From IMG/VR virus record IMGVR_UViG_2531839149_000015: a DNA stretch of 15,279 nt; one strand, 5' to 3'. The DNA is from a virus (lineage: Duplodnaviria > Heunggongvirae > Uroviricota > Caudoviricetes). A program made the translations under genes and the position numbers. Position 1 is the stretch's first letter; each line of letters opens with the position of its first letter. The notes under the pieces are model-generated. The model searched no databases and was not told where the DNA came from. It saw only the letters and a list, made by a program, of their open reading frames with translations. Shown piece after piece: positions 1,866 to 9,035 of this stretch.

Positions 1866-3566
1866 ATGCATTTAGTCACGAAATCTTATTTCGATGCCTT
1901 TTGCAAAGCATTCGCTGCGCCCTATGAGGAGACCAAAAATTTTGAGGCGTTTGTGAACTATTGTGCTTTTTCAAAATACTCAGGCGACAAAGTTGAGGTC
2001 AGTGATCTTGTGTATGAAGGCCCGGACCCTGGTATTGATGGAGCATTTTTATTTTTAGACGACAGAGCCATTTTTTCAACTGAAGAACTTCAGGAGATTT
2101 TCCAAAACTCACGTCGCGAGTTTCAAGTTTCATTAGTATTCACGCAAGCTAAGTCATCGGAGAAGTGGAGCAAACAGGAAATAGACTCTTACATTGCGTC
2201 AATAAGAGATTATCTTTCACCAGCGCCACAACAACCCCACAGTGAATATCTAGCGGACTTTAAAAAAATGTTCAACTTGATATTTGCTAATATCGGCAGA
2301 GTCAAAAATGGCCTTCCAGACTTATACGCATATTTTTTTAGTGCTGCACAAAATACAGAGGCCAGAGAAATAAAAGCTGCATTTGCATCGGGTGAAAAAA
2401 GCTTAAAGTCACTCGGGTTTTCACATGAAACATCCTTCATTATGGCTCACAAAGACATGATTCATGAGCTTTGGCTTGCTGCGGAAGGTCCAATAGAAGC
2501 TAAACTTCCTACAATAGGCTATGCTCCATTCCCAGCGGCCCCTAATATTAATAATGCCTATGTAGCTACAGTCAAAGCTCGTAGTTTTATTGATTCTATA
2601 CTTAAAGACAAAAATGGAAACCCTCGAAAAAAATTATTCGAAGAAAATGTTAGAGATTTTCTGGGAATTGATGGTGACGTAAATTCAGAAATTGCAGGAA
2701 CACTAGATACTGATGGAAAAAAAGCAAGATTTGGTTTAATGAATAATGGAGTGACAATAGTTGCATCAAGCGTGAGGCCTGCAGGGCAAGAAATTTTTAT
2801 ACGAGATTTTCAAATTGTTAATGGATGTCAAACGTCTAATGTTCTTATATCAAAAGACATTCAAGTAGATGAATCAGTTAGTTTAATGATTAAATTAATT
2901 GAAACCGATGAGCCAGCGATCCTTGATGACATTGTACGAGCTACGAATAGACAATCTAAAGTTGAAGATGCACAGTTCATTTCAACGCTAAAAAAATTAA
3001 GGGAATTAGAACATTATTTTAATGCTAAAGGTGCTATTGAAGGAAATAAAATTTATTTTGAGAGAAGAAAGGGGCAGTATAGTTCAGAAAGTATAGCTCC
3101 AGTACGCATATTTGATATCAGAGAAGTTGCGCGAGCATATGCTGCTATTGTTATGATGAGACCAGATTATTCCAGTCGTTATCCAAATAGGTTAACTGGT
3201 GACTTACTTAATGAGGTTTTCTCTTCCGATGCCCTCGAGGATGATTATTATATATCTTGCTATTGCTTGTATAGGCTAAAGGCTCTTATCTCAAATAAGA
3301 GGTTTGATGGGAAGTATTCAAAATTACGCTGGCATATTCTAACTGCTGCGTCAAAATACTGTGGTAATAATTATAAGGCTTGGGGGTTCAAAAATAAAAA
3401 TGAAGCTCTTCATAACTTATTCTCAATGAATGATGGGGAGTGGTTTGAAAAACTTGAGAGTTTAGTAAAAATAGCTATACCAGATCCGGATATTTCTCGA
3501 GACTTACTAAAGTCGCAGCCTTTAACATCAACGATTCTCAAAAGTGTTGATAGCGTACCTAAATAA
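1866..3566 (+). CDS. AIPR-like abortive-infection protein (ParB/DndB-like fold with NGxQT-type motif); cargo gene between int and xis
   Basis: Strong RBS AAAGGAG (1854-1860) then ATG 1866; the ORF-track start at 1773 is an AT-rich leader artifact. 566 aa, markedly AT-rich versus flanks. Contains GIDG near the N-terminus and FQIVNGCQTSNVL in the middle, which I associate with the AIPR family. Followed by hairpin 3573-3591. Confidence 0.6.
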   Translation: MHLVTKSYFDAFCKAFAAPYEETKNFEAFVNYCAFSKYSGDKVEVSDLVYEGPDPGIDGAFLFLDDRAIFSTEELQEIFQNSRREFQVSLVFTQAKSSEKWSKQEIDSYIASIRDYLSPAPQQPHSEYLADFKKMFNLIFANIGRVKNGLPDLYAYFFSAAQNTEAREIKAAFASGEKSLKSLGFSHETSFIMAHKDMIHELWLAAEGPIEAKLPTIGYAPFPAAPNINNAYVATVKARSFIDSILKDKNGNPRKKLFEENVRDFLGIDGDVNSEIAGTLDTDGKKARFGLMNNGVTIVASSVRPAGQEIFIRDFQIVNGCQTSNVLISKDIQVDESVSLMIKLIETDEPAILDDIVRATNRQSKVEDAQFISTLKKLRELEHYFNAKGAIEGNKIYFERRKGQYSSESIAPVRIFDIREVARAYAAIVMMRPDYSSRYPNRLTGDLLNEVFSSDALEDDYYISCYCLYRLKALISNKRFDGKYSKLRWHILTAASKYCGNNYKAWGFKNKNEALHNLFSMNDGEWFEKLESLVKIAIPDPDISRDLLKSQPLTSTILKSVDSVPK

Positions 3567-6526: not shown

Positions 6527-6889
6527 TTAATGACCTGCTGCGCGGAGTTTTCCGTCAGGTTCACCGGCAAGAGTCAGTAATTGTCCCTGGTCTTCCTGCA
6601 GAATAGTCAGGCGACCACCGCGATTGACATACATCGGCGTTTCGGTGGTGTCTTCTTCGGAAATTTTCCCGCGGTTAGTCGGGCGAACATATGAGAGTTT
6701 GTGTTTGATTTTCACACGGTTCTCATCAAATGGTTCGATTTCCAGGTTGAGTGAGACCTTACCTTTGGTTTTCGTGTTCATCACACCGGAAGCGACTTCA
6801 CTGAGAACTGCGCCGATTTTGGTTTCAAATACGCCGCCGTCCAGCTCCCCAATAAATGCCTGCACATCAGTACTGCGTTCGCTAGCCAT
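6527..6889 (-). CDS. Conserved phage early protein of unknown function (yfdP-like position, 120 aa)
   Basis: Start set at ATG 6889 (MASERSTDVQ...) with RBS AGGAG 7 nt upstream. The 226-aa ORF-track extension to 7207 is C/R/W-rich, non-protein-like text. Confidence 0.55.
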   Translation of the reverse strand: MASERSTDVQAFIGELDGGVFETKIGAVLSEVASGVMNTKTKGKVSLNLEIEPFDENRVKIKHKLSYVRPTNRGKISEEDTTETPMYVNRGGRLTILQEDQGQLLTLAGEPDGKLRAAGH

Positions 6890-6937
6890 TTTTCTGCTCC
6901 TAATCATATCGACCCTGCAAGGTCGGTTGGTTTCTCC

Positions 6938-7026
6938 ACAAAACAGAGAAGAACACCTGCGGTGGCAGCCGCCCGGATGGATTGGGTTATGAGCCCGTCG
7001 TCCGGTGATGTTCTTCTCTGTTTTGT
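6938..7026. repeat. 18-bp perfect inverted repeat (stem) enclosing a 53-nt GC-rich loop; core of a structured non-coding region
   Basis: ACAAAACAGAGAAGAACA (6938-6955) pairs perfectly with TGTTCTTCTCTGTTTTGT (7009-7026). No flanking U-tract. Further local hairpins lie 7080-7150. Confidence 0.55.
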
Positions 7027-7358
7027 AAAAAGAGCGGTACCAGCCGGAAGCAAGTGTACAAACTTGTACCGCGAGGACTACACACAGCATAAAGTTGTGG
7101 TGCCGGGTGCCTCCCGGTGCCTGGCGAAGGTTGCACACCAGGCGGGTGGGTATCCACAGAAGGTCGACTGTCAGCCTCAACCTTAACCCGCGTGCGCTGA
7201 GCCGCATTCACCACAACGCTAAGGATTCTCTCTGGTTGAAAATACTTAGCTGTTATGTGCCTGCTTTTAGCCACATCAGGCGAGGTGGACCTAGTTATTC
7301 CCCAACAACAAGGATTTGGTTAATCTGGATATCCCCAACAACTAGCTGAGTATTCAAC

Positions 7359-7880
7359 GTGATAGCTGAACTGTCTGCGGCTATGGCCGCTATAAAGGAG
7401 ACTGCCGGTCTTGCTAAGGTTATTAATGACGCGAAAACGGATGCAGAAGTTAAAGCTGCAACCATTGAACTCCAGAACAAACTAATCACGCTTCAGGCAG
7501 AATGCTTCTCTCTTGGCGATGCGATCCGCCTTCGTGATGAAGAGGTGATGCATCTCAAAGCAAAAATTGCAGAGTTTGAAGATTTTTGTGCCAAGGTAGA
7601 AGGATATGTCCTTGATCAGCTTGACTCTGGTGCTTTTGTTTACTCTAAAAATGAAATTGTGAGTGGAAAAGAAATAACTGTGCATCTGTGCCCACTTTGT
7701 TATTCCAAAAATATAAAATCGATACTTCATCCGCTTCCAGTAGGTAAAACTTCTCATTTTCTTACAAGCCGTTGCCTTCACTGTGAAAATAAATTTCTTA
7801 TGGAAAAAAATCCGATGTACGAACGACCAAGATCATTACGTGAGTTGGGGCGAGATCTGAATTCGCCTTGGATTCCTTAA
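7359..7880 (+). CDS. Hypothetical coiled-coil / C4 zinc-ribbon protein; moron oriented opposite to the early-left operon
   Basis: 173 aa from GTG 7359 (alternative ATG 7383). N-terminal heptad-like region (IELQNKLITLQAE...LKAKIAEFEDF), C-terminal CPLC...CLHC. AT-rich 3' half; own terminator at 7923-7945. Confidence 0.6.
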   Translation: MIAELSAAMAAIKETAGLAKVINDAKTDAEVKAATIELQNKLITLQAECFSLGDAIRLRDEEVMHLKAKIAEFEDFCAKVEGYVLDQLDSGAFVYSKNEIVSGKEITVHLCPLCYSKNIKSILHPLPVGKTSHFLTSRCLHCENKFLMEKNPMYERPRSLRELGRDLNSPWIP

Positions 7881-8110: not shown

Positions 8111-8737
8111 TTAGAGTTCGTATTGAACTCCTTTGACTACACCAATGATAAGGCAATTACCATTGATAGGGATGTTGGGATACCGAGGATTTAATGGTAC
8201 TAAAAACTTTTGAGGGCCATCGATGACTAATTTTTTTACTGTAGCTTCGTTTGTTCCATCAAGTCGAGCGATGACTATTTTTCCATGACGAGGTTCTGCA
8301 TCTGGATCTACAATCACTGTTGCGCCTTCTGGTATTGTTGGGAGGCCATTAGGGTTAGTCATGGAGTCACCTTTAACCTCTAATGCAAATGAGTTATCAC
8401 CAACCTTTAATGATGTATCTACCCACTTGTCCACTTCACTAAACACTTCTGCTGCCCTGCACTCAGTAAACTGCCCAGCCTGAACCCACGATATTACAGG
8501 AACTCTGCGCATGTTTGTGACGAGTTTGCCTTCAAACTCAGCACCATAAAGAATGTAATCTATTGACGTATTGAAGAACTTCGCTAATTTCGAAAGTGCC
8601 TCCCCACCAGGGGTATTGATGTCTTTCTCCCAGTACCCCACAGCAACGTCGCTTACTCCACAAAATTTACCCAATTCTTTCTGGGACGTTCTGGTAACTC
8701 TTCTCAGAGCTTTTATACGCTGACCAACCGTTTCCAT
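8111..8737 (-). CDS. cI: CI-like repressor (XRE-type HTH plus S24 LexA-like autopeptidase domain)
   Basis: 208 aa; N-terminal HTH (QKELGKFCGVSDVAVGYWE), C-terminal S24 signature with GDSM serine and KKL lysine; divergent from a cro-like gene. Confidence 0.85.
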   Translation of the reverse strand: METVGQRIKALRRVTRTSQKELGKFCGVSDVAVGYWEKDINTPGGEALSKLAKFFNTSIDYILYGAEFEGKLVTNMRRVPVISWVQAGQFTECRAAEVFSEVDKWVDTSLKVGDNSFALEVKGDSMTNPNGLPTIPEGATVIVDPDAEPRHGKIVIARLDGTNEATVKKLVIDGPQKFLVPLNPRYPNIPINGNCLIIGVVKGVQYEL

Positions 8738-8759
8738 AGGAGCACCATTTCTTTAATTG

Positions 8760-8822
8760 CTAAGTAATCTTAGTTTTTATTGACCAAAGATAGATTTGTA
8801 ATTAGCATCTAATAAAACTTAG
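8760..8822. promoter_or_regulatory. Divergent immunity promoter/operator region (two palindromic 14-mers flanking a sigma70-like promoter)
   Basis: O1 CTAAG-TAAT-CTTAG (8760-8773); -35 TTGACC (8780-8785); 17-bp spacer; -10 TAGCAT (8803-8808); O2 CTAAT-AAAA-CTTAG (8809-8822); RBS GGAGG (8826-8830); cro ATG 8835. Confidence 0.5.
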
Positions 8823-8834
8823 TTTGGAGGGCGT

Positions 8835-9035
8835 ATGACAACTGACGATATCGAAAGCTACTTCGGCAGTATTGAGAAAGTTGCTGCTTTTTTCGGCATA
8901 ACAACTGAAGCCGTTTATCAGTGGCGAAACCGTCCGGGCCAGTTAATTCCAAAAGGACGTGCAGCAGAAGCTGCATATAGAACTTGCGGACGGTTGCCAT
9001 TTAAACCTGAGCTTTATGAAAAATCTAATGGATAA
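8835..9035 (+). CDS. Cro-like small HTH regulator (YdaS/Cro-type)
   Basis: 66 aa; HTH (EKVAAFFGITTEAVYQWRNR); first gene of the rightward operon opposite cI. Confidence 0.7.
   Translation: MTTDDIESYFGSIEKVAAFFGITTEAVYQWRNRPGQLIPKGRAAEAAYRTCGRLPFKPELYEKSNG

Follow-up and report, generated by a model that had tools for sequence, protein, structure and literature searches.

In phages, early termination of transcription can yield regulatory RNA, as it does at nutL/tL1 of lambda and with StxS at tR', and operons led by a tRNA are known in bacteria, metY-rimP-nusA-infB being an example. The STnc100 class of small RNAs is under study for its links with the virulence of Shiga-toxin phages: in EDL933, transcriptome reads exist for each of the 11 STnc100 copies, one of which was also verified on a Northern blot (PMC5331693); Hfq binds EcOnc27, an RNA downstream of stx2B that overlaps STnc100 (PMC12711010); and PasD1 and PasD2, two Hfq-dependent base-pairing small RNAs (PMC8550237), have been reported as structural homologues of STnc100 (bioRxiv 10.64898/2026.05.13.724894). 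We deal here with positions 6890-7358 of a 15,279-nt stretch of DNA (hereafter, the window) from a Caudoviricetes virus (IMG/VR record IMGVR_UViG_2531839149_000015), a region that lies directly upstream of a leftward yfdP homologue. It is probably the leader of the early-left (PL) operon, composed of a tRNA-derived small RNA of the STnc100/PasD kind with its own terminator (module 1), and of a 5' untranslated region (UTR) containing a three-way-junction RNA (module 2). To our knowledge, a copy of the STnc100 type has not been described before in an early-left leader.

The functional parts of the stretch are all read on the minus strand, in the sense of yfdP. In module 1, the Rfam model STnc100 (RF02076) aligns over its full length (model positions 1-206) with 7247-7025 (-), at 42.8 bits and an E-value of 6e-8, a match that emerged only in an E-value search, the search of the whole window at Rfam gathering thresholds giving nothing. 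Judged on its sequence, the window RNA is a divergent relative of STnc100 and not a curated member; of the options that the first-pass annotation had listed for the region, a small RNA is supported for this one part. The model also matches SfV, SfIV, PhiR49_1, phiES15 and ST64B (35-41 bits). Besides the full-length alignment, the window RNA shares with STnc100 the closing helix UGGUG...CACCA, an identical 3' hairpin (CACCGGGAGGCACCCGGCACCA, CCGGG-AGGCA-CCCGG), the terminal intrinsic terminator and the lambdoid-prophage setting, and differs from it by another 5' hairpin and other inner arms, plus a motif, UGCUGUGUGUAGUC, that is missing from the Rfam consensus. The 5' hairpin (GCUAAG...CUUAGC, 7251-7220, minus strand), seen in the minimum free energy (MFE) fold and in the Rfam alignment, corresponds to the 5' part of the STnc100 model. 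Other weak Rfam matches (MIR1094, ftsZ-DE, hairpin ribozyme and mir-5880), far under their thresholds, were set aside as chance; that of MIR1094 only mirrors the long stem of module 2.

The body of the small RNA is a shell (7094-7217, minus strand) closed by a 9-bp acceptor-like helix, GUUGUGGUG/CACCACAAC, around four inner helices: GCGGC..GC.CGC, GCGGG..CCCGC, CUGG..CCAG and CCGGG-AGGCA-CCCGG. The local hairpins that had been pointed out at 7080-7150 (CCGGG-AGGCA-CCCGG and CUGGUGUGC...GCCAG) are present, and turn out to be inner helices of this larger RNA, closed by GTTGTGGTG / CACCACAAC (7094-7102 / 7209-7217). The dense secondary-structure potential suspected for the region also stands, as the minus-strand RNA from 7260 to 6885 folds at an MFE of -151.9 kcal/mol, against -119.3 +/- 5.5 for shuffled sequences (z = -5.97; none of 100 shuffles as good). 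Among 17 non-redundant variants, RNAalifold found compensatory changes in 8 of the 24 predicted shell pairs, for instance from CCGGG/CCCGG to GGUGG/CCACC. Directly 5' of the terminator lies the single-stranded UGCUGUGUGUAGUC (7089-7076, minus strand), nearly invariant from Escherichia to Serratia and Rahnella while the adjoining helices vary; it is a candidate seed or protein-binding site. The small RNA ends with an intrinsic terminator, which coincides with the 3' end of the Rfam model: a hairpin, GCGGUAC...GUACCGC (7072-7034, minus strand, -12.5 kcal/mol), followed by UCUUUUU (7033-7027). This architecture is widespread: in about 44 of the 62 distinct leaders retrieved through the YfdP protein, a strong hairpin runs straight into a U-run at a distance of 100-160 nt from the start codon downstream, with stem sequences that differ widely.

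The shell interior is heterogeneous. When viral contigs were scanned for the 5' closure motif, dozens of RNAs came up that have the same closing helix around very different interiors of 84-185 nt, and among them there are two main types: type A, as in the window, and type B, as in the mEp460 and Stx2c phages, where it is combined with the same terminator and junction. The Rfam STnc100 model fails to detect type B shells. In these (2354-2485, minus strand, of locus L004, plus some 30 IMG/VR loci) the first hairpin has a loop that can pair with that of the last one (GCUGAU / AUCAGC), and in one of them, L205, both sides are altered together (GCGAU / AUCGC), a complementarity that resembles a tRNA elbow or a kissing complex. 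A hammerhead-like reading of CUGAUG...GAAA in type B shells was rejected, since there is no space for stem II and GAAA is not conserved.

A relationship with tRNA is suggested by what occupies the leader position of the window shell in other lineages. In Phytobacter (L232), the helix GUUGUGGCG...CGCCGCAAC closes a tRNA recognized both by ARAGORN and by Rfam (tRNA model, 52.8 bits); in Hafnia phage Pocitis76 (L286), upstream of its N gene, GGUGUGGUG...CACCACACC closes an annotated tRNA-Gly (47.2 bits); and in Yersinia (L267), GUUGUGGUA...UACUACAAC closes an RNA of 128 nt in which the D and T arms are canonical and a large insertion is present (40.3 bits). The three are above the Rfam tRNA gathering score of 29 bits, and their acceptor GUUGUGG(C/U)(G/A) is the same as that of the window shell. 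Furthermore, type B shells are also found within phage tRNA arrays. The window shell itself differs from tRNA genes by its lack of canonical D or T loops and of an anticodon arm; it is not called as a tRNA (no ARAGORN gene, no Rfam tRNA match at E up to 10), and compared with three CAU tRNAs it has no sequence similarity to them. Because of where it lies, and of the helix in common with the positional counterparts above, we infer that the shell is a tRNA-derived scaffold, descent being the probable and not the proven relation. Literature searches for a tRNA-like reading of STnc100 returned nothing relevant. The layout of tRNA, terminator and genes in the metY operon resembles that of this leader.

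Module 2 (7026-6890) begins with the inverted repeat already noted in the region. Its perfect 18-bp arms (6938-6955 / 7009-7026), 53 nt apart, were recovered both from the sequence and by a repeat search; they extend to 25 nt (6938-6962 / 7002-7026) with 88% complementarity, and a perfect 18-mer inverted repeat within ~100 nt is expected, by hand arithmetic, ~2e-5 times per 15 kb. On the minus strand the repeat forms a three-way-junction RNA (7026-6938), made of a 20-bp stem P1 (7026-7007 / 6957-6938), a helix P2 (CCGGA-CGAC-GGG-CUCAUAA-CCC-AAUCCA-UCCGG, with its CAU loop at 6993-6987) and a variable hairpin P3 (GCGG-CUGCCA-CCGC). A covariance model of the junction was built from a set found by a loop-sequence scan (73 distinct versions) and, to avoid circularity, 70 loci were independently retrieved through YfdP protein patterns and their upstream regions inspected; in this protein-anchored set, the model finds the element in 30 species-level loci. 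An alignment of 27 species-level sequences leaves 93.8% of the cells paired, with changes on both sides in 12 of 34 pairs, so that the stem is kept in relatives through compensatory changes. The covariation amounts to 0.189, compared with 0.094 in shuffles (0/500 as high) and at most 0.077 for slid partners. The structure is also strand-specific: sense scores range from 75 to 122 bits and antisense scores at the same loci from 30 to 44 (116 vs 44 in the window), and the helices contain 44 G-U pairs vs 10 A-C. P1, uninterrupted over its 20 bp in the window, has one fixed internal mismatch in most relatives, and is a putative RNase III-type stem. No relevant Rfam match was obtained for the junction. 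The 3' side of the long stem contains UGCUCUU, but a boxA-like interpretation was discarded, as these bases lie inside the helix and covary with their partners on the 5' side.

The junction is followed by a constant 5' UTR module (6890-6937), which starts with GGAGAAAC (6937-6930, minus strand), continues with a small hairpin, CGACC-UUGCAG-GGUCG (6925-6910, minus strand), and ends with the Shine-Dalgarno sequence AGGAG (6901-6897, minus strand), 7 nt before the ATG at 6889. The stem of the small hairpin covaries in relatives (GGCGG/CCGCC, GCGCC/GGCGC), and the constant module is present in nearly all of them, even where terminator and junction are lacking, as in Buttiauxella and Kluyvera, in which the shell is fused directly to the GGAGA module. 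In phiES15, shell and terminator precede kil with no junction. Since phiES15, Buttiauxella/Kluyvera and mEp460/Stx2c carry differing combinations, and the first gene varies as well, the two RNA modules of the leader are, by sequence comparison, separable. The first gene behind the same leader may be YfdP, one of two RdgC-like proteins, an HD-domain protein or others, depending on the phage.

Two observations concern translation starts around this leader. An in-frame ATG 18 nt upstream of the yfdP start (window 6887-6909) is used by some records, giving 126 aa; it lies right beside the small hairpin and lacks a ribosome-binding site. In many genera other than Escherichia (L219, L236, L249, L252, L255, L270, L271, L280 and others), the loop of the terminator upstream of yfdP homologues holds a conserved Shine-Dalgarno sequence and start codon (AGGAG...GAAGAUAAUGUUCUG), opening a mini-ORF (open reading frame) of 10 to >45 codons that reads across the terminator's 3' arm and on into the long stem. 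This mini-ORF, absent from the window, suggests a translation-coupled opening of the leader in those genera.

Upstream of the stretch, the window has a predicted early-left promoter and a nutL-like site. Leftward transcripts from near cI had been expected to cross the region, and a promoter scan places a predicted PL (TTGCCA-17-TAGATT, a consensus match only) at 8057-8029 on the minus strand, overlapping operator-like repeats of a family (D1) common to the cI-cro interval (8754-8779 and 8803-8828). About 100 nt downstream of it, which is the canonical position of nutL, there is a nutL-like site (minus strand) with a hairpin at 7941-7922 followed by an exact boxA 12-mer, GCUCUUUAACAA, at 7920-7909; the boxA consensus (GCUCUUUAACAA or CGCUCUUA) is the one established for rrn and for the nut sites of lambda. 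More than 100 loci, some of them from Klebsiella, Kosakonia, Serratia and Yersinia, share the conserved PL-proximal leader (8015-7904). The order of promoter, boxA site, variable gene slot, intrinsic terminator and delayed-early genes is the same as in lambda nutL/tL1 and StxS, and by analogy the short terminated transcript is a likely source of small RNA. The present locus differs from lambda in that no N homologue was found and in that the boxA is of the rrn type and comes after its hairpin, not before; it differs from tL1 and StxS in that the terminated RNA is a tRNA-like scaffold. In ST64B, whose slot has no gene, the leader starts in the same way and has an extra terminator before the shell. 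Conserved terminators thus stand in the path of early-left transcription, and boxA-dependent modification at the upstream site is the most economical route past them.

The structures, their strand and conservation, the terminator architecture and the family relationship are thus documented at the level of sequence. From them we infer where the transcript ends, its binding to Hfq, an attenuator role and the existence of a ligand for the junction, in the following scheme. Polymerases started at PL and not made termination-resistant at the upstream boxA would stop at the terminator of module 1, which would play the role of lambda tL1. By analogy with StxS at tR', termination would free a stable RNA that, once processed at its 5' end, measures ~220 nt and is probably bound by Hfq, the tRNA-like scaffold supplying its stability and processing signals. 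Module 2 would be reached only by read-through polymerases, becoming the 5' UTR of whichever gene is first, and would set processing (through the RNase III-type stem), stability and translation of the first delayed-early gene, here yfdP.

Several observations weigh against this proposal. The 42.8 bits of the window lie below the STnc100 gathering score of 47 bits, and the described STnc100/PasD copies are in the late region, near Q, stx2 or the nanS-p esterase, whereas the window copy is in the early-left leader between cI/PL and yfdP. The window terminator (-12.5 kcal/mol) is weaker than those of close relatives (-20 to -23). No sigma-70-like promoter beside the small RNA passed the promoter scan; minus strand 7358-7240, read by eye, offers only poor promoter hexamers, and the conserved core at 7258-7288 has no conserved -10/-35 pair on the minus strand. 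A complement or target of UGCUGUGUGUAGUC was sought in the window and none was found. As to the means of read-through, neither Pfam nor PHROG gives evidence of an N-like protein in the window or for orf33 of SfV. Finally, the suggested RNase III and translation-control roles of the junction derive from its shape and position, and leave the invariance of the CAU hairpin and its flanks unexplained.

A different reading of the junction puts initiator-tRNA mimicry at its centre. The tip of P2, GGGCUCAUAACCC (6996-6984, minus strand), is that of the anticodon stem-loop of tRNA-fMet, with three G-C pairs and the 7-nt loop CUCAUAA; CGACGGGCUCAUAACCC has a local identity of 16/17 with tRNA-fMet, a score reached by none of 500 shuffles, the E. 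coli tRNA-fMet sequence having been checked in 5426/5426 genomes. Of 27 sequences in the protein-anchored set, 26 retain GGG, CUCAU and CCC; the AAUCC flank is conserved too, and the two loop bases after CUCAU vary (AA, UA or UC). On this reading the junction would display the anticodon arm of tRNA-fMet, beside a tRNA-derived scaffold, in order to bind a factor that recognizes the initiator tRNA, candidates being the 30S P site with IF3, MetRS or an anticodon nuclease of the VapC type; its role would be that of a translational operator of the first early gene, or of an early decoy or sensor in the face of defences that cleave tRNA. The anticodon arm is where enteric VapC toxins cut tRNA-fMet, and phage tRNAs counter anticodon nucleases. 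In favor of this possibility are the identity beyond all shuffles, the retention of the motif in species retrieved by protein and not by RNA, the position of the hairpin at the tip of a covarying helix and the tRNA-derived nature proposed for the adjoining module. The genomic context adds to them: in some viral contigs the junction is directly 5' of a type B shell or takes the place of a tRNA in an array. In L189 it comes after tRNA-Asn and tRNA-Arg, where other phage arrays hold tRNA-Met(CAU), which follows tRNA-Arg(TCT) in L134, L152, L160 and L173; shell RNAs and the CAU-loop junction are within or heading phage tRNA arrays in L134, L160, L130 and L189, the L134 junction being inside the array.

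Other features of the hairpin speak against mimicry. About one third of the sequences have CUCAUUC or CUCAUUA, with a U where all tRNAs have a purine; only three pairs of the anticodon stem are copied, and the equally conserved 3' flank AAUCCA is unlike tRNA. Moreover, the leaders of Serratia and Yersinia keep the long stem with a different inner motif, and those of Providencia, Xenorhabdus and Morganella are plain hairpins; the CAU loop is missing from the leaders of Serratia, Yersinia, Providencia and Xenorhabdus. The likeness was also noticed after the fact. It is striking statistically and imperfect in detail, and we treat functional mimicry as the leading unconventional reading, improbable on present evidence, and not as our main claim. 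The thrS operator of E. coli is an anticodon-arm mimic in an mRNA leader, and the two cases have in common a 5' UTR hairpin, near a ribosome-binding site, that reproduces one particular tRNA (here tRNA-fMet) in its anticodon stem-loop; they differ in that the genes downstream are here unrelated phage genes and not a cognate synthetase, and in that the mimic tops a three-way junction, with ~95 nt between it and the start codon. The CAU loop was also inspected by eye for pairing with the ribosome-binding region, GGAGAAAC or the TCCCCAACAAC repeats; such pairing is not conserved, and the idea was dropped.

In its most extended form, the same idea would make of the whole leader a split initiator-tRNA mimic, with an acceptor-like scaffold bearing D- and T-like arms in one module and a junction showing the anticodon arm of tRNA-fMet in the other. 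We hold this to be slightly less probable again. If it were true, the phage would sense or titrate a host factor that targets the initiator tRNA (a VapC-type nuclease, IF3 with the 30S P site, or MetRS), gating the delayed-early genes or blunting a tRNA-cleaving defence, and STnc100/PasD small RNAs as a class would be domesticated phage tRNAs. Literature searches for an initiator-tRNA mimic in prophage leaders gave nothing relevant.

Returning to the leader of small RNA, terminator and 5' UTR, the region had also been proposed to hold a put- or nut-like antitermination element, and a structured RNA of the HK022 put kind would act in cis as a processive antiterminator, carrying its own polymerase past the downstream terminator. 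As with putL/putR, the RNA is in an early-operon leader, upstream of terminators, in a phage with no recognizable N; it stands immediately upstream of a conserved terminator on the path to the early genes, and the leader of ST64B has a second terminator. A nut-like site does exist, from its sequence, at the upstream boxA: there is no boxA within 6890-7358, and the sole exact one is at 7920-7909 (-). This boxA and its hairpin, kept across genera, give a conventional route past the terminators. Phages with the same terminator and junction differ greatly in the sequence, length and architecture of the shell interior, a poor fit to a polymerase-docking surface, and an ordinary tRNA-like gene replaces it in some lineages. 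There is, besides, no second copy on the rightward side of the window, the HK022 PL/PR region (27.6-30.1 kb) shows no sequence similarity and matches neither the STnc100 nor the junction model, and the relatives of the shell act as trans-acting, Hfq-dependent small RNAs. We find the put interpretation decidedly unlikely.

Still less probable, to the point of being very unlikely, is that the inverted repeat acts as DNA, whether as a protein-binding palindrome, a cruciform or the recombination or inversion site that had been considered for it. The arms are perfect 18-mers, and recombination across them can happen: in the decayed prophage of Serratia symbiotica (L284, 2315-2442), the segment between the arms is flipped with respect to all other loci, with GGGUUGGGUUAUGAGCCC in place of its complement, probably by recombination across the inverted repeat as the prophage decayed. 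This is, however, a single inverted example in a degenerate prophage. The strand asymmetry contradicts a DNA role, with the sense strand ~70 bits above the antisense in every intact locus, G-U well in excess of A-C pairs and one U-G pair kept in 24 of 27 sequences; so do the fixed mismatch inside the stem of most relatives, and the conserved asymmetric interior and fixed place in the 5' UTR, which point to RNA.

The least credible reading is a decayed or frameshifted coding sequence, either a small gene of its own or part of yfdP extended at the N terminus, for which speak the PGAP label of "frameshifted hypothetical protein" on the equivalent of 6904-7214 (L288, 1615-1925), the extended YfdP of 226 aa annotated in SfIV, a small plus-strand coding sequence in PhiR49_1 and a 49-aa ORF (6904-7053) that is open in the window and in the same frame in 17 of 26 relatives; this is the only frame often open and it has in-frame stops in the other 9 of 26, element lengths of 105, 107, 109, 118, 121 and 126-130 nt show indels that are not multiples of three and lose the frame across the junction, substitutions are compensatory across helices and not concentrated at third codon positions, the 226-aa extension and the 95-, 74- and 49-aa ORFs have no Pfam or PHROG family and C/R/W-rich translations, and the good ribosome-binding site serves the ATG at 6889 and not the upstream starts. 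The first-pass annotation was thus right in seeing no credible ORF in a region that acts as RNA; it was silent on the terminator, the tRNA relationship and the identity of the anticodon loop.

With regard to its surroundings, the window is, from its sequence, a lambdoid prophage of the SfV/ST64B/CPS-53 type. The SfV, SfIV, SfII, PhiR49_1, mEp460, cdtI and Stx2c phages match the stretch at 95-98% identity and ST64B at 77%; region 6890-7358 is found at 95-100% identity across many phages and is carried by 2781 of 5426 complete E. coli genomes. In annotated relatives, the leftward genes int, yfdT, yfdS, yfdR, yfdQ and yfdP are followed by the leader stretch, beyond which there are a variable slot, then cI, then cro. 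In the window, the yfdP homologue (6527-6889, minus strand; 120 aa, phrog_204) is the first gene behind the leader, cI (8111-8737, minus strand) encodes helix-turn-helix and S24 peptidase domains, and cro is at 8835-9035 on the plus strand. A plus-strand moron (7359-7880; 173 aa, phrog_1244), whose predicted terminator is the plus-strand form of the hairpin at 7941-7922, fills the slot that separates the nutL-like site from the conserved leader; in relatives the slot holds other genes or is empty. In L217 and L283 (E. coli, K-12-like CPS-53), the entire leader upstream of yfdP is absent and its place is taken by tandem GATTTTGACGGGTCAGA-type repeats resembling replication-origin iterons, which are evidence of a deletion that joined the replication region to yfdP. 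In SfV (L002, 7077-7265) and ST64B (L005, 5232-5308), matches to the isrK and C4 antisense RNAs above Rfam thresholds are found to the right of cro and point to antirepressor control of the P1/P7 type in those phages; the window has no isrK or C4 match.

Between leader and moron, the two TCCCCAACAAC repeats already reported at 7299 and 7332, 33 bp apart, are present in the form TCCCCAACAAC(A/T)AG, and they are not a part of the leftward RNA elements. Together with a 31-nt core, TGCCTGCTTTTAGCCACATCAGGCGAGGTGG (7258-7288), these CCCC(A/T)ACA-type boxes make up a cassette (7250-7345) that, in other phages, is upstream of plus-strand morons, for example sieB. Core and boxes can be aligned across seven phages whose flanking sequences are unrelated; in Hafnia phage Pocitis76 they immediately precede sieB, and in 689R2 and Kp4882-1 other plus-strand genes. 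The cassette, which lies outside the leftward RNA modules, looks like a promoter or regulatory element of plus-strand morons; such a promoter may depend on an activator.

The leader occurs in half of the complete E. coli genomes, where it is annotated as nothing or as a frameshifted protein. Its description as a pseudogene or as an extended yfdP is likely a systematic mis-annotation in about half of these genomes, and recognition of the RNA removes a recurrent false pseudogene. It also gives the STnc100-type small RNAs a new position, at the head of the early-left operon. At one and the same leader position there is a true tRNA-like gene in some lineages, a tRNA bearing a large insertion in another, and a shell of type A or B in others; read as a series, these forms point to descent of the STnc100-type RNAs from a tRNA, which would account for their stability and their association with tRNA arrays. 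The junction is a new RNA, supported by covariation and not in Rfam, that stands before the recombination, excision and anti-host genes of many enterobacterial prophages, and its invariant initiator-tRNA-like hairpin offers a handle on delayed-early control in lambdoid phages that lack N.

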